Of a stretch of DNA of 64,000 bases, positions 6,133-58,648 are shown piece after piece (within the stretch, counting starts at the first letter, position 1; each line of letters opens with the position of its first letter). The DNA is from Vicinamibacterales bacterium (lineage in GTDB: Bacteria; Acidobacteriota; Vicinamibacteria; Vicinamibacterales; UBA2999): assembly GCA_035512515.1 (NCBI GenBank), contig DATKDY010000261.1, positions 33,575 to 97,574 of the forward strand, read 5' to 3'. Under the pieces are notes generated by a model. That model was not told where the DNA came from and ran no database searches. It saw only the letters and a list, made by a program, of their open reading frames with translations. The translations under genes and the position numbers were made by a program.

Positions 6133-6777
6133 ATGCGCAAGGGATGTGTCATCGCGGCGGCTGCCGTTCTCGCCCTTCAGGGCGGCTCGGTACTCGCACA
6201 GAACAAGACTCCATTGGGTTTTTTCATCACCAGCGTAGGCAGCGGTGATGGCGCCAATCTCGGCGGCCTCGCTGGTGCTGACGCTCACTGTCAGAAGCTG
6301 GCTGCTGCTGCCGGTGCCGGTAATCGCACGTGGCGCGCCTATCTGAGCGGCACCGAGAAGGGCAAGCCCGTCAATGCCAGAGATCGAATTGGATCGGGAC
6401 CGTGGTTCAATGCCAAAGGCGTGCAGATTGCCGCCAACGTCGAGGAACTCCATAGCGAGGCGGCGAAGACCGGAAAGGAAAACTCGCTGACTGAAAAGGG
6501 CGAGCAAGTCCCCGGGCGCGGCGACAAGCCGAACCAACACGACATCCTCAGCGGATCGCAGGTGGACGGCACGGCGTTCACCGATGGTGAGGATCACACC
6601 TGTAACAACTGGACCAGCAACAGTACCGGTGCCGCACAAGTGGGTCATCACGATCGCCAGGGCGGCGGCGCCAATCCGACGTCCTGGAACAGCGCGCATG
6701 CTTCGAAGGGCTGCAGCCAGCCGGCGTTGGTTGGCACGGGCGGCAATGGGTACTTCTACTGCTTCGCGGCGAAATAG
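6133..6777 (+). CDS. secreted Cys-containing protein (possibly endostatin/lectin-fold, DUF1554-like)
   Basis: The signal peptide is MRKGCVIAAAAVLALQGGSVLAQ. The motif FFITSVGSGDGANLGGLAGADAHC resembles DUF1554-type proteins, but this is from memory and unverified. Confidence 0.6.
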   Translation: MRKGCVIAAAAVLALQGGSVLAQNKTPLGFFITSVGSGDGANLGGLAGADAHCQKLAAAAGAGNRTWRAYLSGTEKGKPVNARDRIGSGPWFNAKGVQIAANVEELHSEAAKTGKENSLTEKGEQVPGRGDKPNQHDILSGSQVDGTAFTDGEDHTCNNWTSNSTGAAQVGHHDRQGGGANPTSWNSAHASKGCSQPALVGTGGNGYFYCFAAK

Positions 6778-6803
6778 GCCCTTCGACTCGCTTCGCTCGC
6801 TCA

Positions 6804-6879
6804 GGGCAGGTGGGGCAGGTAGGGCAGGTAGGGCAGGTAGGGAGGCGACACCCGGCCAACCCAGGCCCTGCCTGCCTGC
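6804..6879. repeat. tandem 9-mer GGGCAGGTN x4-5 followed by a C-rich complementary tract (CCCTGCCTGCCTGC)
   Basis: A direct read gives gggcaggtg gggcaggta gggcaggta gggcaggta ggg ... ccctgcctgcctgc. It lies between convergent genes. Confidence 0.9.
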
Positions 6880-6881
6880 GA

Positions 6882-19165: not shown

Positions 19166-21290
<2,125 letters not shown>

Positions 21291-21322: not shown

Positions 21323-21422
21323 CACGATGGGTACGAAGTCCACGAAGGACACGAAGGTTTGGAATAAATTGTCCCCGCCCTTGGTGTCCATCGTGACCTT
21401 CGTGACCTTCGTGACCTTCGTG
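21323..21422. repeat. 9-mer tandem-repeat palindrome: 4 x CACGAAGGN-type units, 19-nt AT-rich loop, 5 x NCCTTCGTG-type units
   Basis: A direct read gives cacgatggg tacgaagtc cacgaagga cacgaaggt | ttggaataaattgtccccg | cccttggtg tccatcgtg accttcgtg x3. It lies inside the mreB-mreC spacer. Confidence 0.92.
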
Positions 21423-21433
21423 TTGGGGAACTG

Positions 21434-22423
21434 ATGGCATCTGTTCAACTCTCCCAGCGGCCGCTGCTCGTCTTCGCCGGCGCCGTCGTGCTTCACGTCA
21501 TCCTCATCTCGGCGCAAGTGAGTACGACCGCCGGCATCCCCTTCATTCAGGTCGTCACCTTCGGCGTGTTTTCCGAAGTGCAGCGCGGCACGATGACCAG
21601 CGTCGACAGCGTGCGCGGCGTCTGGACCGGTTACGTGGCGCTGCGCGACGTCCAGGAAGAAAACGAGGCGCTCAAGCGCGAGTTGCAGACGCTGCAAGTG
21701 CGCCTTCAGGAAGAACGCGCCCAGGCCCAGCGCGCGGAGAATTTCCGGCAGCTCCTCGAATTGCGGGAGCGCGCGGGTGTCGACACCCTGGCCGCGGAGA
21801 TCATCGCCGGGCCGGCGGATCTCGAATTTCGCGATATGACCATCGACAAGGGCAGCGTCGACGGGATTGCACGCGACATGGCGGTGGTCTCTCCGGCCGG
21901 CGTCGTCGGCCGCGTGACGCTGACGAGCCCGCGAGCCGCACGCGTGCAGATGTTGATCGACCGCAATGCCGCTGCGGGAGCGATGATCGAGCGCACGCGC
22001 GCCCAGGGCCTGGTCAGGGGTAAAGGAACGACGCTCAGCATGGACTATGTGCCGGGCACGGCCGACGTGAGGCAGGGGGACCTGGTCGTCACCTCCGGGA
22101 TCGACAAGATTTATCCGAAAGGATTCGTGATCGGGACGGTCGAGGCGATCGAACGGGGCCGGGGGACGTTCCACGAGATCGTGGTGCAACCGTCAGTCGA
22201 CTTCTCGCGGCTGGAAGAGGTCCTGGTCGTCACGACGCCCCCACCAGCAATTACGGCGGAGCAGATCGCCAGGGAAGCCGAGGCGATCGCCGCCGAGCAG
22301 CGGCAACCCCAGAAGAACCAGTCCCCGGCGCCTCAGACCCCACCGTCGGACGCCGCGCCCCCGGCCCGCGCGCCCGCCAACACCACCCCGCGGCGGGTGA
22401 GCCCTGGGGAGCCAGGCGCGTGA
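21434..22423 (+). CDS. mreC: rod shape-determining protein MreC
   Basis: It has an N-terminal anchor, a coiled coil (ENEALKRELQTLQVRLQEE), beta domains (VVSPAGVVGRV.., GDLVVTSGIDKIYPKGFVIG) and a Pro-rich tail. Confidence 0.9.
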   Translation: MASVQLSQRPLLVFAGAVVLHVILISAQVSTTAGIPFIQVVTFGVFSEVQRGTMTSVDSVRGVWTGYVALRDVQEENEALKRELQTLQVRLQEERAQAQRAENFRQLLELRERAGVDTLAAEIIAGPADLEFRDMTIDKGSVDGIARDMAVVSPAGVVGRVTLTSPRAARVQMLIDRNAAAGAMIERTRAQGLVRGKGTTLSMDYVPGTADVRQGDLVVTSGIDKIYPKGFVIGTVEAIERGRGTFHEIVVQPSVDFSRLEEVLVVTTPPPAITAEQIAREAEAIAAEQRQPQKNQSPAPQTPPSDAAPPARAPANTTPRRVSPGEPGA

Positions 22424-22926
22424 AGGTGGTGACGTCGCTGCTGGCCATTGCCGCCGCGCTGGCTTTGCAGACGACGCTGGCAAGTCTCGTGATTCGTGGG
22501 ACGGCCGCCCTCGATCTCGTGCTCATCGTCGTGGTGTATCTGGCGCTGATTTCGGGGCCGGTCACGGGGTTGCTGCTCGGCAGCGCCGCCGGCCTCGTCC
22601 AGGACGCGTTGTCGAGCGGCATCATCGGCATTGGCGGGCTGGCCAAGACCGTCGTGGGGTTTGTGGCCGGCGTCCTCGGGACGCAGTTCATCGTCACGGC
22701 GCCGCTGTCACGGTTTGTCGTGTTTCTGCTCGCGACCGTGCTGCATGCGGCGGTGTTCATGGGCCTGTATAGCCTGCTTGGCCTCCGACAGTTCGACAAC
22801 CCCTGGGGCGCGGTGCTCGGCCAGGCCGTCGGCAATGGTTTCCTCGGGGTCGTCGGAGCGCAACTCATCGAGCTGCTGCCCGGTCTGAGGGAGCGCCGCA
22901 AGGCCAAGCGAATGGTTCGGCATTGA
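22420..22926 (+). CDS. mreD: rod shape-determining protein MreD
   Basis: It is a polytopic 168-aa membrane protein. Its start overlaps the mreC stop (GTGA), and it sits in the canonical position. Confidence 0.8.
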   Translation: MKVVTSLLAIAAALALQTTLASLVIRGTAALDLVLIVVVYLALISGPVTGLLLGSAAGLVQDALSSGIIGIGGLAKTVVGFVAGVLGTQFIVTAPLSRFVVFLLATVLHAAVFMGLYSLLGLRQFDNPWGAVLGQAVGNGFLGVVGAQLIELLPGLRERRKAKRMVRH

Positions 22927-22947: not shown

Positions 22948-23093
22948 GGCTTTCGGCTCACAGCTTTCAGCGCTGGCAGGCGATAGCTGAACCCAGAAGG
23001 CTTCCGGCTCACAGTCTTCAGTGCTGACAGCCGATAGAGCTGATAGCCGATAGAGCTGATAGCGCTGATAGCTGATAGCTGATAGCAGAAAGC
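22948..23093. repeat. complex 7-mer array (GGCTNTC/AGCTNTC units, then GCTGATA units) containing a ~44-bp duplication
   Basis: A direct read shows 22948-22990 and 22999-23043 to be about 85% identical copies. The 3' end reads gctgatagcgctgatagctgatagctgatagcagaaagc. The outermost segments are about 21/25 complementary if one unit loops out. Confidence 0.9.
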
Positions 23094-23098
23094 TTACG

Positions 23099-25039
23099 AT
23101 GGCAGTTGCCGAAGACAAACGTCGGTTGAGCGTCCGGGTCACCGCCATCCAGACGCTGGTTCTCGTCGCCTTCGTCCTGCTCGCGGGCGGGTTCTGGTTC
23201 TTCCAGATCGCGCAGGGCGACAGATTCAAGGAGATGGCGGAGAACAACCACACGCGCACGCTGCCGCTGCGCGCGCCGCGCGGGATCATCGTCGATCGTC
23301 ATGGGCGCGTGGTCGTCGAGAACCGCAACTCATTCAACATTTCCATCCTTCGCGAGCACAGCAAGGATCTCGATCGTACGGTCCGTCTGCTGGCCGAGCT
23401 GACCGGTGTGCCCGAGTCACAGCTCCGCGATACGATCGCGCGCCATCGACACGAGCCCAGCTACCGTCCCATCGTCGTCATCAACGACGCCACGCTCGAT
23501 CAGACGGCAGCCGTCGAGGCGAGAAGCCTCGATCACGAGCTGCCAGACGTGGTCGTGCAGGGAGTACCCACGCGCAAATATCCGCCCGACGCGCTGGCGG
23601 CCCATCTCATCGGCTACGTGGGCGAAGCCAACGAAGTGCAGGTCAATGTCGGCGGCTATGCACTCGGTGCCATCGTCGGCCAGACCGGTGTCGAGAAAAG
23701 TTACAACGATGCGCTGATGGGTCGCGATGGCGCACGGGTCGTGGTCGTCAACAGCCTGGGCCGCGAGATCGAAGAACTCGACGAGCTCCTCATACCGCCG
23801 CTCGAGGGCCAGCGTGTGCAGTTGACCCTGAGCCTGGCGATGCAGAAAGCCGCGGAAGACGCCTTCCGCGCGATGGGGTTCTGGGGCTCGGCGATTGTGC
23901 TCGATCCACGCAACGGTGATGTGCTGACTCTGGTGAGCCTGCCATCGTACGACCCCAACGCGTTTGCCGCGGGTATCGACCGCGCCGCCTATCAGGCGCT
24001 CATCACCGACCAGTTGCGGCCGCTGCAGAACCGCGCCATTCAAGGACGCTATTCTCCAGGGTCCACGTTCAAGGTCCTGGTCGCGACCGCCGGACTGGAA
24101 GAAGGGCTCATCACACCGTCGTTTCGCGTGAACTGTCCCGGGGGCGGCAACTTTTACGGACGCTGGTTCCAGTGCCACTTGAAAACCGGCCACGGGAGCG
24201 TGGATCTGCGCGAGGCTCTCGCGAGGTCGTGCAACACCTACTTTTACACCCTGGGCAACATGCTCGGTGTCGATCGCATTCACAAGTGGGCGGTCAATCT
24301 CGGGTTGCACGGCAAGAGCGGCATCGATCTCCCGAACGAGCAGGACAGCCTGGTGCCGTCAAGCGAGTGGAAGAAACAGCGGACGGGCGAACGGTGGTAT
24401 CCGGGTGAGACGATCTCGGTTGCGATTGGGCAGGGCCAGAACGCGGTCACGCCCATGAGCCTGGCCGTCATGATGGCGTCGGTAGCCAACGGCGGGATCC
24501 GTCATATTCCGCGGCTCGTGAGGGCCGTGGACGACGGGGAGGGGTGGGATGAAGTGCCGCCGGCCCCCAATCCTCATCCGCCGGCGCTGCTGAAGCCCGA
24601 GACGGTGCAAGCGGTGCACGACGGATTGTGGATGGCGGTCAATGGCGCGGGCACCGCCTCGCGCGCGCGGATCGCCGGCCGCGACGTCGCGGGCAAGACC
24701 GGCACCGCACAGGTCATCTCGCTGCAGGGTCGTGAACGCGCACGGGGCAGCGGTCTCGACCATCGCGATCACGGCTGGTTCGTGTTCATGGCGCCGCGGG
24801 ACAATCCCGAGCTGGCCGGCGTCGTCTTCGGCGAGCACAGCGAAGGCGGTGGACGGACGGCGCCCATCGCCAGGCACATCATCGAAACCTATTACGCCGA
24901 GAAAGAAGGCCGCCCCCTCCCGGTGTTCCAGAACCCCTTTGCCCCGCTGCCAGCTCCATCCCCTAGCGCGGTGGCCACGGCGGCGAGCGCAAGCGAGGCG
25001 CCCAGGCCGGCTGGGGGCGTTGGCGCAGTGCGCCGCTGA
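23099..25039 (+). CDS. mrdA: penicillin-binding protein 2 (elongasome transpeptidase)
   Basis: It has the PBP dimerisation region, then the transpeptidase motifs STFK (PGSTFKV), a SxN region and KTGTAQ. Confidence 0.9.
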   Translation: MAVAEDKRRLSVRVTAIQTLVLVAFVLLAGGFWFFQIAQGDRFKEMAENNHTRTLPLRAPRGIIVDRHGRVVVENRNSFNISILREHSKDLDRTVRLLAELTGVPESQLRDTIARHRHEPSYRPIVVINDATLDQTAAVEARSLDHELPDVVVQGVPTRKYPPDALAAHLIGYVGEANEVQVNVGGYALGAIVGQTGVEKSYNDALMGRDGARVVVVNSLGREIEELDELLIPPLEGQRVQLTLSLAMQKAAEDAFRAMGFWGSAIVLDPRNGDVLTLVSLPSYDPNAFAAGIDRAAYQALITDQLRPLQNRAIQGRYSPGSTFKVLVATAGLEEGLITPSFRVNCPGGGNFYGRWFQCHLKTGHGSVDLREALARSCNTYFYTLGNMLGVDRIHKWAVNLGLHGKSGIDLPNEQDSLVPSSEWKKQRTGERWYPGETISVAIGQGQNAVTPMSLAVMMASVANGGIRHIPRLVRAVDDGEGWDEVPPAPNPHPPALLKPETVQAVHDGLWMAVNGAGTASRARIAGRDVAGKTGTAQVISLQGRERARGSGLDHRDHGWFVFMAPRDNPELAGVVFGEHSEGGGRTAPIARHIIETYYAEKEGRPLPVFQNPFAPLPAPSPSAVATAASASEAPRPAGGVGAVRR

Positions 25040-26130
25040 TGTCCATGCTCGAGCGGCGTCTCTACTTCCACTTCGACTGGGCGCTGATCGCGGCGATCGC
25101 GGCGCTCTGTGCGATCGGGCTCGCCATGATATTCAGCACGACCGGCGGCGCGACGCGTCTCTACTGGACGCAGATCTACGCCATCGTGATTGGGCTGATG
25201 ATCATGGTCGCGGCAGTCGCGATCGACTATCGATCGCTGGCTGACAAGTCGCATCTGCTGTACATCGGCTTCATCCTCGCTCTCGTCGCCGTGATGCTGG
25301 TCGGATCGCGGCAGATGGGCGCGCAGCGCTGGCTCAACCTCGGCTTCTTCAATCTGCAGCCCTCGGAATTCGGAAAGGCTGTGCTGGCATTGGTGCTCGC
25401 GAAGATGCTCGGCGAAAGCCGGCGGCCGGCGCTCACCAACAACGAGTTGTTTCTCGCCTGCGTCTTGACCGCCATTCCGTTGCTGCTCATTGCCAGACAG
25501 CCGGACCTCGGCACCGCGGTGACGCTGCTGCCGGTATTGCTCGTCGTGACGTTTGCGGCTGGACTGCCGCTGAAATATCTCGGTGCGATCGCGGTCATCG
25601 GCGTGCTGTCCGCGCCGGTGGCCTGGCAGTTCGCGCTCGAGGATTACCAGAAGGAACGAATTGAAACGTTCCTCGATCCGGCGCAGGATCCGCGCGGGGC
25701 GGGTTACCAGCAGATTCAGGCACGCATCACGGTCGGGTCGGGCGGACTGTGGGGCAAAGGGTTTCGCGAAGGCACGCAGGGCCAGTTGCGGTTTCTCCCG
25801 GTGGCGCACAACGACTTCATTTTCTCGGTGCTTGCCGAGGAGCAGGGATTTGTCGGCGTCATCGCCGTCCTCGGCTTGTACTTGTTCGTGATCGTGCGGT
25901 CTCTCGAGGCGGCCAAGCTGGCCAAGGATCGCCTCGGCGCGTACTTGGTTCTGGGCGTGCTCGCGACCTTCACGTTCCAGGTTATCTACAACATCACCAT
26001 GTCGGCTGGCCTCGCGCCGGTCAAGGGATTGACGCTGCCGCTCATGAGCTATGGCGGGTCGTCCATGATCGCGACGCTGGCCGGCTTCGGCCTCATTCTG
26101 AACGTCAGGATGCGGCGGTTCACAAACTAG
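25039..26130 (+). CDS. rodA: SEDS glycosyltransferase RodA
   Basis: It belongs to the FtsW/RodA/SpoVE family: QPSEFGK, RQPDLGTA, HNDFIFSVLAEEQGF, LPLMSYGGSS. Its ATG overlaps the mrdA stop. Confidence 0.9.
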   Translation: MSMLERRLYFHFDWALIAAIAALCAIGLAMIFSTTGGATRLYWTQIYAIVIGLMIMVAAVAIDYRSLADKSHLLYIGFILALVAVMLVGSRQMGAQRWLNLGFFNLQPSEFGKAVLALVLAKMLGESRRPALTNNELFLACVLTAIPLLLIARQPDLGTAVTLLPVLLVVTFAAGLPLKYLGAIAVIGVLSAPVAWQFALEDYQKERIETFLDPAQDPRGAGYQQIQARITVGSGGLWGKGFREGTQGQLRFLPVAHNDFIFSVLAEEQGFVGVIAVLGLYLFVIVRSLEAAKLAKDRLGAYLVLGVLATFTFQVIYNITMSAGLAPVKGLTLPLMSYGGSSMIATLAGFGLILNVRMRRFTN

Positions 26131-26209
26131 GGCAGGTCGGGCGGGTAGGGCTGGTGGGCCGGGTCCTGCCCGCCCAGCCCCACCAGCCGCACCAGCCCCA
26201 CCAGGCCCA
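26130..26209. repeat. 9-mer array: 4 x GGGCNGGTN followed by 5 x CCAGCCCCA-type units, all in 9-nt phase
   Basis: A direct read gives gggcaggtc gggcgggta gggctggtg ggccgggt | cctgcccgc ccagcccca ccagccgca ccagcccca ccaggccca. It starts on the G of the rodA TAG and ends 4 nt before the rng ATG. Confidence 0.92.
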
Positions 26210-26213
26210 GACC

Positions 26214-27797
26214 ATGAACAAAGAAATGATCATTGCCTCGAATGGCCACGAAACCCGTGTGGCGATCCTCGAGGACGATCTCGTCGCCGAGATCTTCGTC
26301 GAGCGCGAGCGCAATCGTGGAGTGGCAGGCAACGTTTACAAGGGACGCGTGTCGAAAGTCCTGCCCGGCATGCAGTCGTCCTTCGTGGACATCGGGCTCG
26401 AGCGCGACGGGTTCTTGTATGTCTCCGACGTCGTCAGCCCCGCCGATCTTTTCGACGATGACGAAGAGGAGGACGACGGCCCGGACCAGGCCCGGGAGAA
26501 AGCGAAGCGCGCGGGCCGTGGCCGCGGCGATCAAGCGCGCGGGGCGGCGCAAATCAGGAGTGAACGCGTGGAAGGGCGGATCGAAGATCTGCTGAAGGAG
26601 GGCCAGGAGATTCTGGTCCAGGTGGCCAAGGAGCCGCTCGGCACCAAAGGCGCCCGTCTGACGTCACATGTGACCCTGCCCGGCCGATTCCTGGTCTTCA
26701 TGCCGACCGTCGATCACATCGGGGTCTCGCGCAAGATCGCAAGCCGCGAAGAACGCGGACGGCTGCGCGGCATCGTGCGCGAATTCCGGGAGCAGCATTC
26801 GTTCAGCGGCGGCGTCATCATCCGCACGGCGGCCGAGGAGCGCTCCAAGGAGGACATCCTGGCCGACCTCCAGTACTTCTATCGCATCTGGACCGACATG
26901 CGGCAGAAGATGGAGTCGCATCGCGCACCGGCTGTCGTTTACCAGGAGCCAAGCCTCGTGGCCAAGCTGCTCCGCGACCTGCTGACGGACGATTACACCG
27001 CCATCCGGATCGATCATCGGGAAGAACACCAGCGCGTCGTCGAGTTCATCGAGCGCATCATGCCGGCCCTGGCCAGCAAGGTGAGGCTCTACGACAAGGA
27101 TTTCCCGATCTTCGAGGAATACGGCGTTCAGGCCGAGCTCGAGAAGGCGCTGCGCAGCAAGGTGTGGCTCAAGTCCGGCGGCTCGATCGTGATCAACCAG
27201 ACCGAAGCGCTGGTCGCCGTCGACGTCAACACCGGCCGTTACGTGGGGAAAAAGACGGCCGGTCGGCTCGAGGACACAATTCTCAAAACCAACCTCGAAG
27301 CGGTCAAGGAGATCGTTCGCCAGATCCGGCTCCGCGACCTCGGCGGCATCATCGTCCTCGACTTCATCGACATGGAGGAGAAGAAAAACCGCCAGAAGGT
27401 GTTCCAGACCGTGGAGCAGGAACTGCGCAAGGATCGCGCGCCGTCCAAACCGCTTCAGGTACAGGACTTCGGCCTCGTGATCATCACGCGCAAGCGAGTG
27501 AAACAGAGCCTCGAACGGGTGTTGACCGAACCGTGTCCCTACTGCGCCGGCGGCGGCACCATCAAGTCGAGCTCGACGATTTGCTATGAGATTCTTTCAG
27601 AGGTGAAGAAGGTCGGCGGCGACATGGATGGCCCTGGCGTGCTGCTGCGCGTGAACCCGGACATCGCTCGCGCGCTCAAGGAAGAGGAGCGGAACGTCGT
27701 CAAGGACCTCAGGCATTTGCTGGGCAAGGACGTCATCGTCAAGCCCGACGTGCACCTGCATCACGAGCAGTTCGACGTGATGTCGATCGGCGGCTGA
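26214..27797 (+). CDS. rng: ribonuclease G / RNase E-G family endoribonuclease
   Basis: The product begins MNKEMIIASNGHETRVAILEDD.. and has an S1 domain (GNVYKGRVSKVLPGMQSSFVDIG). It also contains LGTKGARLT, EALVAVDVNTG, LRDLGGIIVLDFIDM and CPYCAGGG. Confidence 0.9.
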   Translation: MNKEMIIASNGHETRVAILEDDLVAEIFVERERNRGVAGNVYKGRVSKVLPGMQSSFVDIGLERDGFLYVSDVVSPADLFDDDEEEDDGPDQAREKAKRAGRGRGDQARGAAQIRSERVEGRIEDLLKEGQEILVQVAKEPLGTKGARLTSHVTLPGRFLVFMPTVDHIGVSRKIASREERGRLRGIVREFREQHSFSGGVIIRTAAEERSKEDILADLQYFYRIWTDMRQKMESHRAPAVVYQEPSLVAKLLRDLLTDDYTAIRIDHREEHQRVVEFIERIMPALASKVRLYDKDFPIFEEYGVQAELEKALRSKVWLKSGGSIVINQTEALVAVDVNTGRYVGKKTAGRLEDTILKTNLEAVKEIVRQIRLRDLGGIIVLDFIDMEEKKNRQKVFQTVEQELRKDRAPSKPLQVQDFGLVIITRKRVKQSLERVLTEPCPYCAGGGTIKSSSTICYEILSEVKKVGGDMDGPGVLLRVNPDIARALKEEERNVVKDLRHLLGKDVIVKPDVHLHHEQFDVMSIGG

Positions 27798-28007
27798 TGG
27801 CGCGGATTACGACGGGATTACGCAGATGAATGGTATCCGCAGATTGCGCAGATTACGCAGATTCTCGCTTTTCATGTTGGCAGATGTCCTCACGGCGTGC
27901 GGAGTCGGACGGTTCCAGAACGGATCCGATGGTAAGTAATCTGCGCAATCTGCGGAATCTGCGCATACCATTTCATCTGCGTAATCCCGTCGTAATCCGC
28001 GTCATCA
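27795..28007. repeat. long inverted repeat: ~62-nt arms (~90% complementary) built from 9-mers (GCAGATTNC, GGATTACGN), 73-nt loop
   Basis: The left arm is 27802-27863 and the right arm is 27937-28000. The palindrome extends outward to include the rng TGA (27795-97) and the stop of the convergent gene (28005-07). Confidence 0.93.
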
Positions 28008-31233: not shown

Positions 31234-31284
31234 CGGCTTTCGGCTCTCAGCTATCGGCGCTCTCAGCTCCCGGCTTCAGCGCTT
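31234..31284. repeat. 7-mer array ([AG]GCTNNC on the + strand, GCTGA[GA]A-type on the sense (-) strand) filling the sigma/anti-sigma spacer
   Basis: A direct read gives ggctttc ggctctc agctatc ggcgctctc agctccc ggcttc agcgctttc agctcac ggctctc. The last codons and TGA of the sigma gene lie in the array. Confidence 0.9.
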
Positions 31285-31860
31285 TCAGCTCACGGCTCTC
31301 GGCTGTGTCAAATACGCACGGATTCGTAAGCGGGCCTTGTGGACCTGTGATTTCGACGTCCCTTCCGAAATACCCAGAATCGCGCCCACCTCGCCGTGTC
31401 CAAACCCCTCGACGTCGTGGAGCAGAAACGCCGCGCGGCAGGCAGGAGGCAAGCGGTGAATCGCCCGATCCAGATCAATCCGGCTGACCGCACCGAGCGC
31501 CGGGGTGCCGGTGGGTTCCTGCGCGCCATCTTCGTCGAGTGAGTCAGTCTGCTGACCCATCCGCGACTGCCGGCTGCGCAGTGCGTCGAGACAATGATTC
31601 ATGGCGAGCCGGTACAACCACGTCCCCAGCGACGACTCACCGCGAAAGCTCCCAAGCTTCCGGTACGCGAGAAGGAAGATGTCCTGCAAGAGGTCGTCGG
31701 CATCGTTCGCCGTTCCCGCCATCCGATACGCCAGATTGTAAAGGCGCGGCGCATGCTGCCGGTAGAGCTCTTCGAACGCCGCCCCGTCTCCGGATCTGAT
31801 TTTTCCGGCCAGCTCCAGGTCGGCGTTTTTCACGTCTCCTATGGGTTTAGACGAGGCCAT
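31285..31860 (-). CDS. ECF (sigma-70 family, group 4) RNA polymerase sigma factor
   Basis: Region 2 reads DDLLQDIFLLAYRKLGSFRGESSLGTWLYRLAMNHCLD. Region 4 reads AFLLHDVEGFGHGEVGAILGISEGTSKSQVHKAR. The start is ATG 31860 or 31881. Confidence 0.9.
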   Translation of the reverse strand: MASSKPIGDVKNADLELAGKIRSGDGAAFEELYRQHAPRLYNLAYRMAGTANDADDLLQDIFLLAYRKLGSFRGESSLGTWLYRLAMNHCLDALRSRQSRMGQQTDSLDEDGAQEPTGTPALGAVSRIDLDRAIHRLPPACRAAFLLHDVEGFGHGEVGAILGISEGTSKSQVHKARLRIRAYLTQPRAVS

Positions 31861-45811: not shown

Positions 45812-46876
45812 GTGGAGATGCTTCCGACGATTGAGTGGAGGGGCGATGTGATCGTGATGGTGGACCAGCGCAAGCTGCCATCGCATGAGGTGTATGTGCA
45901 ATGCAAGACCGCCACCGACGTCGCCAAAGCCATCAGGACGATGGTCATTCGGGGTGCGCCCGCAATCGGGGTTGCGGCGGGGATGGGCATCGCGCTCGGG
46001 ATGGAGCGGAGCAAGCAGACCGGCACCCGGCAGTTCGCGACGGAGTTCCAGAAAACGTGCGATCTGATGGCCAGCACTCGTCCGACAGCCGTCAACCTGT
46101 TCTGGGCCATCGACCGGATGAAACAATGCTTCTCGGACGGGGCGCTGGCCGGCGAATCGGTCGATCAGCTGAAAGCGCGGCTCAAAACCGAAGCGGTGAA
46201 AATCCACGACGAAGATGTGGCGGGCTGCCGGGCAATCGGCGCGTACGGCGCGACGCTGGTCCCGGCCGAGGCTCGCATCCTCACACACTGCAACGCCGGC
46301 GCCCTGGCGACGGCCGGTTATGGCACCGCCCTGGGCGTGATTCGTGGGGCCATCGAAGCCGGCAAGCGCGTCAAGGTGCTGGCGGACGAAACGCGGCCGT
46401 TTCTTCAGGGATCACGATTGACGGCCTGGGAGTTGATGAAGGACGGTATCGACACGACCGTGATCACCGACAGCATGGCCGGGGCGCTGATGCGCGACGC
46501 CCAAATCGATCTCGTCGTCGTCGGGGCGGATCGGATTGCGGCCAACGGGGATACGGCCAACAAGATCGGCACGTACACGGTTGCGGTTCTCGCCCGCGAG
46601 CATGGAATTCCGTTCTATGTCGCGGCGCCGTGGTCCACTGTCGATCTGTCGACGAGCGACGGCAGCGACATCCCGATCGAGGAGCGGCACAGAAAAGAGG
46701 TGACGCACGTCGGCAGCATTCAGCTCGCGCCAGACGGCGCGCAGATCCGCAACCCCGCATTTGACGTCACGCCGCATCGGTTCATCACGGCCATCATCAC
46801 CGAACGCGGAATTTTTCACCCGCCCTTTGGAAAGACCCTGGCGGGAGGGAACCAAGAACTAAGAACTAAGAACTAA
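45812..46876 (+). CDS. mtnA: S-methyl-5-thioribose-1-phosphate isomerase
   Basis: The product contains [71 protein letters not shown]. The last 7 codons and the TAA are supplied by the GAACTAA repeat. Confidence 0.9.
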
Positions 46877-47126
46877 GAACGGAACTAAGAACGACACGAA
46901 CGACGGAACGACGGAACGACATGAACGACGGAACGACACGAACAGCGGAACGACACGAACAGCGGAACGACATGAACAGCGGAACGACATGAACAGCGGA
47001 ACGACACGAACAGCGGCACGAGGAACGACCCGAAAGAACGGCACGAGGAACCATACGAGGAACGACACGAGGAACGACACGAGGAACGAACCGACACGAG
47101 GTACGAAGCAGCGCCGAGAGCCGAGA
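46849..47126. repeat. ~280-nt strand-asymmetric, nearly T-free array of GAAC-initiated units (GAACTAA x4, GAACGAC(G/AC/AT), 17-mer GAACAGCGGAACGACAY x4.5, GAGGAACGACAC x3) ending in GCCGAGAGCCGAGAG
   Basis: This is a direct read. The 17-mer copies are at 46940-47016. There is no reverse-complement partner nearby. Confidence 0.92.
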
Positions 47127-47131
47127 GTCGA

Positions 47132-50548: not shown

Positions 50549-50550
50549 AG

Positions 50551-50610
50551 CCAGGTGCGGCCGGGTGCGATCGGGTGCGACCGGGTGCGGGCAGGTGCGG
50601 CCGAGGTGTC
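50551..50610. repeat. six phased 10-mers (CCGGGTGCGN type), followed to ~50720 by GC-rich GCCGAAGGC/GCCTTCGGC-type REP fragments
   Basis: A direct read gives ccaggtgcgg ccgggtgcga tcgggtgcga ccgggtgcgg gcaggtgcgg ccgaggtgtc. Confidence 0.9.
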
Positions 50611-51081: not shown

Positions 51082-52014
51082 CTGGAGATCCGCTTTCCAC
51101 GCGTTGAGGGCTACCGCCAAGCGATCCGCAATCGTGTCAGCGTTGACTGGGACCGGGTGCCGCCGCTCTGGCTCGATCCCGGCAAGATTCCGCCGGAGGT
51201 CGAGGTCAAGGCCTCGCTGCCCACCAACACTGGTCGGCCGTCGTTGATGGGTCCCGGTCGGCACGAAAGTCTCAACCTCAATCCCTACCGCAAGGGCCGT
51301 CGCGTGCAGGAATTGGTGTTCGAGATGGCGAAGGACCTGACGCGTGAGTACGTGAAGAACCAGGCCGAAGTGCCTGCGCACGTGCTCTTTCCGCAGCTTG
51401 CGATCATCGTGCAGCGGTATGTCCAGGACAAGGTCGTCCCGATCGCGCCGGCAGAGAAGGTGGATCTGTACCTGTCCCCGTACTACGGCTGGGCGATCGA
51501 GCAGCTCGTGAGCGCCATTCGCCCCGACGCCAGCAGGGGCGAGGCGCCGGAAGTGCCGCGCTACGAAACGAACCGGGAACCGGGCTCCACCGCCGAAGTT
51601 GATTACTGGACCTCCAAGGACGTACGCGAAACGCTGAAAAGTCATGTCAACTACGTCGTCGCCGATACCAAGGTGTGGGAGCAGTCAGCCGCCTACATTC
51701 TCGACACGCACCCGTTGGTGCAGGCGTTTGTCAAGAACGCAGGACTTGGGTTCGCGATCCCTTACCTGCACAACGGCCAGACGCACGACTACGTGCCGGA
51801 TTTCGTCGTCCGACTGGAGTCCGTGGAGCCGCGACATCTCATCGTGGAAACCAAGGGGTTCGATCCGCTCGCGGAGATCAAAGCAGCGTCGGCGGAGCGT
51901 TGGGTGGCGGCCGTCAATGCGGACGGCCAGTTCGGGCGCTGGGAATTCCGAATGGCGCGCAGCGTCGGTGCCGTCCGGCAAGCGCTCGACGAGGTGAGTG
52001 CCGAAAGCCGATAG
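51082..52014 (+). pseudogene. C-terminal ~310 aa of a type III-like restriction enzyme (Res/BPTD_3080-type), helicase part absent
   Basis: The product contains ..FPRVEGYRQAI.. and ends with a PD-(D/E)xK-like endonuclease module ..HDYVPDFVVRLESVEPRHLIVETKGFDPLAEIKAASAERWVAAVNADGQFGRWEF.. The reading frame is fused upstream to unrelated sequence. Confidence 0.6.
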
Positions 52015-52075
52015 CGCTGATAGCTGATAGCTGATAGCTGATAGCTGTAAGCTGAAAGCCGAAAGCCCAGAGCTG
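52001..52075. repeat. 7-mer array GC[CT]GA[AT]A x~11 (core GCTGATA x4)
   Basis: A direct read gives gccgaaa gccgata gcgctgata gctgata gctgata gctgata gctgtaa gctgaaa gccgaaa gcccaga gctg. It supplies the stop of the preceding ORF and ends 2 nt before the NUDIX GTG. Confidence 0.92.
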
Positions 52076-57075: not shown

Positions 57076-57135
57076 AAATATTGGGAACATTGCCCTTAGC
57101 TGACTTCGTATAATCCATCAGGGGGGTCCGGATCG

Positions 57136-58119
57136 ATGTCGAAGAAGACGCGGTATTTCGTGATCACGGCAGCGGCAATCCTGGCAGTGGGGTTGACGAC
57201 TGGTTTGGTGGCCTCCTACATGGGCTTTCCAGTGGCGTTTTCACGAGCCGCCGGTCCCGATGAGCTTCAATACGTTCCCGCCGACGCGGCCGTGGTGGCG
57301 TATGCCAATGTCCGAGAAATCATGGACTCGCAGTTCCGCGAGAGCTTCCGACAGTTCGAGCCCGACACCAGGGAGCGCGACGAGTTCGAGGCCAAGACCG
57401 GAGTCAACATCGACCACGACATCAACTCTGTCGTGGCGGTGCTCACCACGGGTGCGACCCAGGCGACGAGCCCGCACAATGGCATGCTGATTCTCGCGCG
57501 CGGCCGCTTCGAACAGTCACGGCTCGAGGCGCTGGCCCTCGAGCACGGCGGCCACGTCGAGGACTACAACGGCAAGCGACTCCTCCTTCACCGCCACGAG
57601 GCTGGCCACTCCGAGATGGCTATCGGCTTTCTCGAGGCCGACCTGATCGCCCTTGGCGGCTACGAGGCCATCAAGCAGTCGATTGACGCCAATGGCGGTC
57701 GCAACATCGTCTCGACCAACGCGGACCTGATGCGCCAGATCGGCGAGCTCGACGCAAGCAACGCCTGGGCGGTCGGCCGGTTCGACGCCATCGCTGACAG
57801 CGCCCACGTCCCCTCCGAAATTCAGGCCCATCTGCCCGCGATTCAGTGGTTCTCTGCGGCGACTCACATCAACGGAGGTGTGAGCGGCGTCTTCAAGGCC
57901 GAAGCGCGCGACGAAGAGTCCGCCAAGAACATGCGTGACGTACTCAACGGCTTCCTGGCGCTGGCCAGGATGCAGTCCTCAGCGCAACCCGAACTGAAGA
58001 CCATGGTCGATTCGCTGCAGTTGTCGGGTGACGGCAAGAACGTCGCGGTGTCCTTCACGCTGCCGTCGGAGCTGTTCGACGCCCTCGCGCAGCTGAAGAA
58101 GCTCGAACAGCCGCGATAG
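57136..58119 (+). CDS. hypothetical membrane-anchored periplasmic protein (last gene of the ABC cluster)
   Basis: It has an N-terminal anchor MSKKTRYFVITAAAILAVGLTTGLVASYM. I recognise no catalytic motif. Confidence 0.6.
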   Translation: MSKKTRYFVITAAAILAVGLTTGLVASYMGFPVAFSRAAGPDELQYVPADAAVVAYANVREIMDSQFRESFRQFEPDTRERDEFEAKTGVNIDHDINSVVAVLTTGATQATSPHNGMLILARGRFEQSRLEALALEHGGHVEDYNGKRLLLHRHEAGHSEMAIGFLEADLIALGGYEAIKQSIDANGGRNIVSTNADLMRQIGELDASNAWAVGRFDAIADSAHVPSEIQAHLPAIQWFSAATHINGGVSGVFKAEARDEESAKNMRDVLNGFLALARMQSSAQPELKTMVDSLQLSGDGKNVAVSFTLPSELFDALAQLKKLEQPR

Positions 58120-58203
58120 CACGAAGGGCACGAAGGGCACGAAGGAGACGAACGATCAATAGATTGGTTCTTCTTCGTGTCCATTGTGTCCATCGTGTCC
58201 ATC
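58120..58203. repeat. 9-mer tandem-repeat palindrome of the CACGAAGGN family: 4 units, 12-nt loop, 4 reverse-complement units
   Basis: A direct read gives cacgaaggg cacgaaggg cacgaagga gacgaacga | tcaatagattgg | ttcttcgtg tccattgtg tccatcgtg tccatcgtg. It starts immediately after the TAG at 58117-19. Confidence 0.92.
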
Positions 58204-58240
58204 GTGAGGCCGGATGTATAATCCGCCCAGGTCATAACCT

Positions 58241-58648
58241 GTGGCGGATTTCGTCTTTTTTTACGGCACGCTGATGACGCCCTTCAATCGTCCCGGGCGC
58301 TTGCGCGTCGATCCGCAGATGTCCTTTGCCGGGCGCGGCACGATCCGCGCGGCCCTGTTCGACCTGGGCATCTATCCGGCGGCCGTTCCGACACATGATC
58401 GCAGCACGGTCTGGGGCGAGGTCTACGAGATGCTCGACCCGACGACGGTGCTCGCGACGCTCGACGAGATTGAAGGGTATCGAGCGGCAGAACCCGAGCG
58501 CAGTCTGTACACGCGCGTCCTCACAGAGGTGACGCTCGATGAGGGCGGCAACGTACAGGCGTGGGCGTACTTCTACAACGCCCCGTTGGGCCGGGCACAG
58601 CGGATCGAGTCTGGCGATTATCTCGAACACCTGAACGTCAAGGGGTAG
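58241..58648 (+). CDS. gamma-glutamylcyclotransferase (GGACT/AIG2-like) family protein
   Basis: The product contains FVFFYGTLM..AALFDLGIYPAAV..VWGEVY..LDEIEGY. The start is GTG, and a TATAAT lies at 58217-58222. Confidence 0.85.
   Translation: MADFVFFYGTLMTPFNRPGRLRVDPQMSFAGRGTIRAALFDLGIYPAAVPTHDRSTVWGEVYEMLDPTTVLATLDEIEGYRAAEPERSLYTRVLTEVTLDEGGNVQAWAYFYNAPLGRAQRIESGDYLEHLNVKG

Follow-up and report, generated by a model that had tools for sequence, protein, structure and literature searches.

The DNA analyzed here, a 64,000-nt stretch of contig DATKDY010000261.1 from a Vicinamibacterales bacterium (the window), carries between mreB and mreC an element built of 9-nt words that can fold back on itself. 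This element, referred to as copy 1 (21323-21422), consists of four units of the type CACGAWGNN, a 19-nt loop and five inverted units. The same arrangement had been described in an earlier note on this DNA, and it is borne out both by direct reading of the sequence and by Tandem Repeats Finder (TRF), which reports period-9 arrays on both sides of the loop. The arm complementarity of about 80% given in that note also holds, in that an inverted-repeat search returns arms of 35 nt with 80% complementarity, rising to 94% in the best sub-register, which is 18 nt long. Likewise, copy 1 is indeed intergenic, as the Pfam bounds of MreB and MreC lie on either side of it; it begins 33 nt past the mreB stop codon and ends 11 nt ahead of the mreC start codon. 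The Shine-Dalgarno-like GGGGAA of mreC (21425-21430) is located just outside the stem, 3 nt downstream. On balance, we favor the view that copy 1 is a gene-less member of a fold-back family that is dispersed between genes and spans phyla, and not a device specific to the mre genes.

When folded as + strand RNA, copy 1 yields -58.9 kcal/mol, with a z-score of -5.3, in a stem of ~45 bp with periodic internal loops. The analogous DNA folds give -27.4 for copy 1 and -25.3 for a second copy in the window, copy 2. No U-tract follows the stem in copy 1, where the downstream sequence is TTGGGGAACTG, or in copy 2, and an intrinsic-terminator scan of the window lists no site at either. Rfam provides no family for the two copies, only sub-threshold look-alikes of microRNA hairpins. 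A pattern representing the unit dimer, with up to 2 mismatches allowed, has 14 matches in the window, 13 of which fall within the two copies, as compared with a mean of 0.34 in 100 shuffles; chance is therefore excluded.

The second array of the same unit set, which had been noted ~37 kb away, is confirmed and extends from 58120 to 58206. Copy 2 starts with the last base of the TAG stop codon of the open reading frame (ORF) at 57136-58119, and its + strand RNA folds with -58.6 kcal/mol (z-score -8.5). Owing to G.U pairs, this RNA is 12.6 kcal/mol more stable than that of the - strand. In the two window copies the arms are 19-30 nt apart. At the site of copy 2, a relative that is 91% identical (L274) has only two direct units, CGCGAAGGG CACGAAGGA, another (L275) has one unit, and in L277 and L278 the sequence is unrelated. 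Immediately ahead of the GGACT-family gene that follows copy 2, at 58207-58250, there is a conserved motif, TATAATCCGCC...GGCGGATTTCGTC, and a similar one, TTCGTATAATCCATCAGGGGG, lies ahead of ORF 57136 (57095-57135). Relatives keep the TATAATCCGCC and TTCGTATAATCCATCAGGGGG motifs at 88-93% identity, whereas the adjoining repeat changes. Rfam has no match for these motifs, which may represent a promoter or leader.

A scan of species-representative genomes with the pattern CACGAWGGNCACGAWGG returned at least 120 loci, and the same architecture is seen in ~30 of those listed. Under a strict definition, i.e., two or more units in each arm and a distance of at most 200 nt between the arms, there are at least 23 elements in at least 18 loci. 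These belong to Acidobacteriota, Geobacteraceae, Desulfobacterales, Syntrophobacteraceae, other 'delta' metagenome-assembled genomes (MAGs) of the Desulfobacterota type, Binatia, Verrucomicrobiia, Tepidisphaeraceae (Planctomycetota), Caulobacteraceae and Stellaceae (Alphaproteobacteria) and Lysobacterales (Gammaproteobacteria). A looser set adds Chloroflexota, namely Chloroflexaceae and Herpetosiphon, and the architecture spans at least six phyla overall. Four loci (L053, L094, L117 and L068) have two or three copies each within 8 kb, and loci with CACGAAG fold-backs also carry hairpins of other units. Among contigs filed as viral, which may be truly viral or misfiled cellular DNA, at least 42 hairpins were found in the 1.07 Mb listed.

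The arms are laid out as 5'-(CACGAAGNN)n ... (NNCTTCGTG)n-3', and both window copies are likewise forward, then reverse. Among the matches listed, 51 pairs are forward-reverse and 1 is reverse-forward; because a hairpin reads alike on both strands, this asymmetry is real. In the strict-type elements among these matches, arms have 2-4 units, three being the commonest, and the loop has a median length of 35 nt (range 11-178). The loops differ among loci and are not conserved, and the core word CACGAAG is kept while the two bases between words vary. Outside the first unit, most of the 102 ends among the matches listed have the five bases TT(C)AC, and the outermost dimer is CACGAAGGACACGAAGG. The outer terminus of the family thus reads TT(C)AC/CAC ... 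GTG/GT(G)AA, with slashes at the array edges. Polarity, size and terminus were not selected by the search pattern. The proposal that the arrays form a dispersed family, as opposed to a one-off expansion, is therefore strongly supported by the spread over at least six phyla, the fixed polarity and the conserved termini.

In soil runs the arms are covered 5-10x as deeply as the unique flanks, and the loose ends show no relationship to one another; thus, many other loci share these arms. The window comes from a soil-metagenome MAG, and its best named homologue, 78% identical, is from 'Acidobacteria bacterium', so that it is probably of Acidobacteriota. The sequences of the organism itself were located only in DNA runs, and the five metatranscriptomes share ~5% of words with it and hold other organisms. 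In these five metatranscriptomes, family arms are present in RNA-library contigs with unrelated flanks.

Several loci depart from the simple layout. In a Lysobacterales MAG (L046, 3296-3796) there are three tandem copies of a composite unit of ~150 nt, in which AAGCCGAAGCC-type hexamers are followed by 2-3 CACGAAG units, with a single CTTCGTG arm at the far end. A Vicinamibacteria MAG (L030, 7192-7272) has nine consecutive CCTTCGTG units on one strand and no partner arm in the 8-kb locus. The sole reverse-polarity pair among the matches listed, in a Terriglobales MAG (L071, 2764-2839), consists of three CCTTCGTG units and then three CACGAAGG units; the 24 nt between these arrays carry the outer-end motif of the family, GTGGTTA...ATAACCAC, and this locus may thus consist of two half-elements placed side by side instead of an inverted form. 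In a Kiritimatiellia MAG (L111, 3395-3724) the hairpins are nested, with outer CACGAAG arms enclosing inner CACGGAG arms and these a further long hairpin. Four IMG/VR contigs filed as viral (L226, L196, L251 and L252) have 3-5 CACGAAG fold-backs within 10-15 kb.

Arms of this kind also enclose genes. In a Gemmatimonadaceae MAG (L097), CCACTAAGG CACAGAGGG CACGAAGGA is followed by an ORF of 121 aa and then by CCTTCGTG CCCTTCGTG CCTTAGTGG; i.e., the arms are of the CACGAAGG type. The ORF matches the GxxExxY family, PF13366 (E 4e-39) and TIGR04256 (E 5e-40). From the 478 homologues of this protein, four (L138, L143, L147 and L148) were picked by record size alone. Inverted tandem arrays flank all four genes, each of which points in the same direction as both of its neighbors. 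The arms consist of CACAAAGG and CACAGAG words in L138, of GGAAGGGC 8-mers in L143, and of three CACAGAGGA units in L147, where the ends are TTCAC/.../GTGAA. In L148 the gene lies between carA and carB, in the arrangement AAC/CACGAAGG ... CCTTCGTG/GTGA. Inverted tandem arrays are therefore found around the GxxExxY gene in 5/5 cases examined, and CACNNAGG-type words in 4/5 (3/4 homologues).

In the GxxExxY family the catalytic set D-E-K is invariant, and the AlphaFold2 model is confident, with a predicted local distance difference test (pLDDT) score of 94.5. A search of the PDB by sequence returned nothing, and the search by fold gave weak PD-(D/E)XK matches, with E 7e-3 or worse; because these matches are only weak, we draw no functional inference beyond the PD-(D/E)XK fold. 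Scanning six frames with the hidden Markov model revealed no gene remnant in the long loops or in the window. PF13366 has been described as a family of unknown function with multiple transfers between divisions (PMC3424549), and no paper in the literature searched ties it to repeats. Taken together, these data demonstrate that the window element belongs to a dispersed fold-back family that is polar and spans phyla, and that arms of this family also enclose GxxExxY genes.

The history of copy 1 can be followed in relatives, namely 17 metagenome loci fetched via MreC and closer contigs obtained through protein look-ups. The locus L150, whose MreC is 90% identical to that of the window (100%; 4+5 units), has the same element, with the GATAAC boundary, a homologous loop and 4+4 units. 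A contig from run X2 represents a near-identical strain, with 3 differences in 185 nt, and contains one extra TCGTGACCT unit, giving a 3' arm of six units (4+6). In L121/L122 (MreC 83%) the 5' arm is the same, the loop is longer and largely different, as only its first bases align, and the 3' arm has diverged. In L151 (MreC 84%) there are six direct units, a truncated loop and a deleted 3' arm, and this spacer does not fold (z-score +1.6). The 5' arm and the preceding GATAAC boundary are thus kept in L150, L121 and L151. Other word families occupy the junction in L153 (MreC 85%; CTCCCGG and GCTGATAGC type), L127 (82%; GCTATCAGC) and L130 (66%; CCGGGAG). Plain GC-rich stem-loops are found in L123 and L128 (83% and 76%), and L124 and L125 (77% and 81%) have spacers of 31 and 13 nt without a repeat.

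Across all relatives, the mreB-mreC spacer ranges from 5 to 172 nt. Copy 1 is thus inherited vertically but is unstable at this junction, through gain and loss of units, loss of an arm and replacement, and the CACGAAG element is dispensable in close relatives. We infer that replication slippage accounts for the gain and loss of units. In 9 of the 17 orthologous spacers the fold has a z-score no higher than -1.8, and in seven of these no higher than -2.5, although their sequences differ. Because about half of the orthologous spacers have a stable structure, it is possible that a hairpin at this position is of generic benefit, or is at least tolerated.

The window contains ~10 further spacers with hairpins or arrays of other 7-9-nt units, as identified by TRF and direct reading. 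Those listed in Table 1 all sit past the 3' ends of genes, at co-directional or convergent junctions, and none of the ~6 divergent junctions of the window has a hairpin array. The 195-bp palindrome found in the window between rng and the gene after it has a cleanly empty counterpart site in L122 (TGAggcgccTCA at 6430-6459); the insert sits in the center of a 6-bp palindrome. No target-site duplication is visible at the clean filled/empty pairs. Shorter versions of this palindrome occur in L151 and L153. The rodA-rng spacer is 18 nt in L122 vs 80 nt in the window, and G-rich/C-rich 9-mer hairpins are found at this junction in four lineages (the window, L150, L151 and L153). The 18 nt of L122 resemble two direct units starting with the stop codon, TAGGCCCG TAGGCCG, and may be a seed or a remnant.

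At sppA-ppiD there are two units per arm in L121 vs 7+4 in the window. The units themselves vary by lineage, i.e., seven GGTTCCAA 8-mers in the window, 8-mers of the ACGTTCCT/ACGTTCCA type in L150 (5515-5578) and AGTTCAA 7-mers in L121 (1383-1436). Because these units are related but different, the unit sequence must have changed together in both arms. The heptamer hairpin at mreD-mrdA (GCTTTCG/GCCGATA type) is present in every relative examined (L121, L150, L151, L153 and L125), and only in the window is its left part duplicated and its right arm expanded to ~9 units. The array at 46849-47131 is long, T-poor and direct, and has no inverted partner; some of its units, CACGAGGAACGA and TACGAAG, differ from the CACGAAG core by one mismatch.

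Table 1. Positions of the two CACGAAG fold-backs, the genes around copy 1, and the other tandem-word arrays of the window.
Feature	Positions	Strand	Junction	Basis
mreB, upstream gene	20223-21290	+		Pfam PF06723, E 7e-148
Copy 1, 5' arm, four tandem 9-mers CACGATGGG TACGAAGTC CACGAAGGA CACGAAGGT	21323-21358	+	mreB-mreC	sequence, repeat searches
Copy 1, loop, 19 nt, ttggaataaattgtccccg	21359-21377	+	mreB-mreC	sequence
Copy 1, 3' arm, five inverted 9-mers CCCTTGGTG TCCATCGTG ACCTTCGTG x3	21378-21422	+	mreB-mreC	sequence, repeat searches
mreC, downstream gene	21434-22423	+		Pfam PF04085, E 1e-44
MreD	22420-22926			Pfam
PBP2	23099-25039			Pfam
Copy 2, 5' arm, CACGAAGGG x2 + CACGAAGGA	58120-58146	+		sequence, repeat search, dimer pattern
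Copy 2, loop region	58147-58171	+		sequence, fold
Copy 2, 3' arm, TCTTCGTG (CTTCGTG) TCCATTGTG TCCATCGTG TCCATCGTG	58172-58206	+		sequence, repeat search, dimer pattern
Array, unit AGGGCAGGT	6803-6880
Hairpin, unit GGTTCCAA	16820-16922		sppA-ppiD
Array, GCTGATA type	22948-23094		mreD-mrdA
Hairpin, G-rich and C-rich 9-mers	26128-26209		rodA-rng
195-bp palindrome, CGCAGATTA-unit arms	27802-28000 (also given as 27795-28007)		between convergent stops of rng and next gene
Heptamers	31234-31304
GAAC-type words	46849-47131
Direct array, 10-mer GCCGGGTGCG	50550-50608
GCTGATA type	52000-52067

The CACGAAG fold-back family is probably selfish, varying through slippage of its units. In the favored reading, its members would be miniature selfish cassettes, or what is left of them, lodged in the short gap that separates a stop codon from the following gene, and the GxxExxY nuclease would recognize their words. 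Both window copies would have lost the GxxExxY gene, or would never have carried one. Once placed, an element is passed on vertically and changes quickly, in that whole units are gained or lost in a manner that fits replication slippage, arms are lost and other repeat families take its place. This reading can be extended, although only tentatively, to a broader model. In this extension, the CACGAAG fold-backs and their sister families of 7-9-nt words may be the non-autonomous form of undescribed, pan-bacterial miniature cassettes, in which a GxxExxY nuclease of the PD-(D/E)XK type recognizes the tandem 9-bp words in terminal inverted arrays. Within operons, the cassettes would colonize the gaps behind stop codons, and they would pass from one phylum to another.

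In the mreB-mreC transcript, a stem of ~-59 kcal/mol without a U-tract might slow 3'-to-5' decay of the mreB segment; alternatively, it might be a site for double-strand RNases, as REP/BIME elements are in E. coli operons. A generic hairpin effect of this sort on mRNA stability or polarity is plausible. Nevertheless, we regard any influence on the mreB:mreC ratio as a by-product that any such hairpin might have, and not as the reason for which the element exists.

A number of observations weigh against the favored reading. No target-site duplication was found in the flanks of the window copies, and their loops and unit numbers differ, unlike in typical MITEs (transposable elements of the miniature inverted-repeat type). 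The TTCAC terminus is not clearly seen in the window copies, apart from ATAAC on one side; the flanks are ATAAC (left) and TTGGG (right) for copy 1, and GATAG and AGGCC for copy 2. Within the mre cluster, relatives retain at each junction the unit family proper to it, which would also fit growth in place. The sense-strand G.U excess of the window copies does not clearly extend to other loci, where 12 of the 20 co-directional cases agree with the direction of transcription. Covariation between the variable two-base spacers of partner arms carries little information, because these spacers are mostly GA or GG; their complementarity is 0.50 vs 0.50 for shuffled partners. There is no GxxExxY gene in the 64-kb window, in ~150 kb of close relatives, or in ~2 Mb of repeat-bearing loci, except in L097, so that gene-less copies outnumber gene-carrying ones by ~80 to 1. 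Lastly, we know of no demonstration that a GxxExxY protein cuts or moves anything.

Four other explanations were weighed against the favored one. The hairpin may be a dedicated device, selected because it attenuates transcription after mreB or shields the mreB segment from 3' exonucleases, and thereby secures an excess of MreB over MreC and MreD. The exact placement of so stable a stem (-58.9 kcal/mol, z-score -5.3) between the mreB stop codon and the mreC ribosome-binding site argues for this possibility, as do the structured state of 9 of the 17 orthologous spacers (z-scores of -1.8 or below) despite their different sequences, and the preservation of the 5' arm in four relatives. In addition, mreB mRNA of E. 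coli reportedly exceeds the mreBCD read-through transcripts in abundance, and in malEFG differential expression arises from REP/BIME elements. However, the stem lacks a U-tract. Relatives with a 75-85% identical MreC have other repeats, simple stem-loops or bare spacers; those at 77-85% include unstructured spacers of 13-31 nt and the non-folding direct array. Unit number differs between near-identical strains. Moreover, the same type of element is found at unrelated junctions in many phyla, e.g., between carA and carB in L148. For these reasons, a dedicated, conserved regulatory role is unlikely to be the purpose of the element.

A second kind of explanation calls for no mobile element and no cognate protein. 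A small terminator-like palindrome after a stop codon would expand neutrally in place, by slippage and by template switching between the arms, and the CACGAAG word shared across phyla would reflect a sequence bias of that process. The junctions sppA-ppiD and mreD-mrdA, which keep their unit family while copy number shifts, the one-unit difference in the near-identical strain and the possible two-unit seed at rodA-rng of L122 are all consistent with this idea. Slippage alone, however, predicts no polarity, and a ratio of 51 to 1 is seen among the matches listed. It also leaves unexplained the TT(C)AC conserved outside the repeat, the recurrence of one word in six or more phyla, loops of 75-180 nt that are not repetitive, and the same arms around GxxExxY genes in all five cases. 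We consider growth in place quite unlikely. The tandem words could also act at the DNA level, as paired binding sites of a nucleoid protein or of a global regulator, a role of the kind proposed for paired tandem octa- and heptanucleotides in Geobacter metallireducens (PMC2700814). The conserved core with two variable bases between words, the fixed polarity relative to the center and the existence of partnerless arrays (L151, L274 and L030) would suit a binding array. Yet a period of 9 bp does not stay in phase with the DNA helix, the elements are at 3' gene ends and not at promoters (0 of ~6 divergent junctions in the window), the many words per genome would demand many regulators, and sites appear and vanish between close relatives; we judge this role very improbable. 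Finally, repeat collapse during assembly, or faulty binning, might have produced the element; in favor of this, contigs assembled from the short reads of the source run end within the arms. Nevertheless, the same element is found between the same genes in assemblies of other samples, namely L150, L121/L122 and Logan contigs of runs X1 and X2, that from X2 spanning 21354-21538. Because these assemblies are independent, copy 1 is not an artifact, and we give this explanation next to no weight.

An exact-word search of the literature did not find the unit dimer, and we found nothing published on the CACGAAG nonamers as a family, on their polarity, terminus or occurrence across phyla, or on a tie to PF13366. 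Paired arrays were noted in Geobacter (2009) and Xanthomonas (2015) without explanation, and here one word, CACGAAG, is nearly identical across at least six phyla. If the link between arms and nuclease is causal, the fold-backs would define a novel type of small element, mobile or selfish, and a large family of uncharacterized proteins, PF13366, would gain a function. There are also practical consequences. Such elements break short-read assemblies, and very stable hairpins inside essential operons may alter operon polarity, and are not to be read as gene-specific regulation.

Among known systems, repetitive extragenic palindromic (REP) sequences, with the related bacterial interspersed mosaic elements (BIMEs) and REPINs, are abundant extragenic hairpins at 3' gene ends and in operons, where they stabilize the upstream mRNA. 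Their gene-less copies far outnumber the putative cognate enzyme gene, which is itself flanked by repeats. REPs are single imperfect palindromes with a GTAG head, their enzyme, RAYT, is a Y1 (IS200-like) transposase, and they are species- or genus-specific. The CACGAAG fold-backs and REPs have in common hairpins at 3' gene ends and in operons, a gene-less majority and a repeat-flanked candidate enzyme gene. Unlike REPs, the CACGAAG fold-backs have arms of tandem 9-mers starting with CAC and no single GTAG-head palindrome, the protein concerned is of the PD-(D/E)XK type and not a Y1 transposase, and the CACGAAG word is shared across phyla. MITEs have terminal inverted repeats, comparable to the two arms, but the window copies have no target-site duplication and no near-identical dispersed copies. 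As in Rho-independent terminators, a stable, GC-containing stem follows directly after a stop codon. Copy 1 differs from an intrinsic terminator or attenuator in that it has no U-tract and its stem of ~45 bp is far longer than a terminator stem.

The TAACTGA heptamer, which forms direct repeats in Beggiatoaceae, Cyanobacteria and Bacteroidetes (MacGregor 2015, PMC4679880), and the cyanobacterial STRR (short tandemly repeated repetitive) sequences represent further cases. Like CACGAAG, TAACTGA is one short word in tandem in intergenic DNA of distant phyla, with no known mechanism of transfer. In contrast to the fold-backs, nearly all its arrays are direct and are placed a short way upstream of start codons; of the 170 in the Maribeggiatoa genome, one is inverted.

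Further counterparts are paired arrays. In G. metallireducens, paired tandem octa- and heptanucleotides were described as putative binding sites of global regulators (Aklujkar et al. 2009, PMC2700814). These pairs share with our elements the 4-5 tandem units of 7-8 nt, the mostly opposite-strand pairing, the variable distance and the many intergenic sites; they differ in their words (GTTGCTYN, MTYCTGA), which are described as genome-specific, and no nuclease gene is associated with them. In Xanthomonas campestris and X. axonopodis pv. citri, arrays of the heptamer GGGAATC form convergent pairs (Rehm et al. 2015, PMC4692102). Here too the units are short and in tandem, and the two nearby arrays lie on opposite strands and are capable of forming a stem-loop. 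About 90% of the GGGAATC arrays are intergenic and nearer to the upstream ORF; they are commoner at co-directional or convergent genes than at divergent ones, and are poorly conserved between related species (PMC4692102). Unlike CACGAAG, the Xanthomonas unit is a G-rich heptamer that was studied for quadruplex formation, it was described in one genus, apart from direct arrays in Nostoc, and no fixed terminus, cross-phylum word or associated gene has been reported for it. Copy 1 fits the traits of both these systems, with its 9-nt tandem units, convergent inverted arrays, location at a 3' gene end and poor conservation. Paired inverted arrays of short tandem repeats are thus already known as a kind, and copy 1 is an ordinary member of it.

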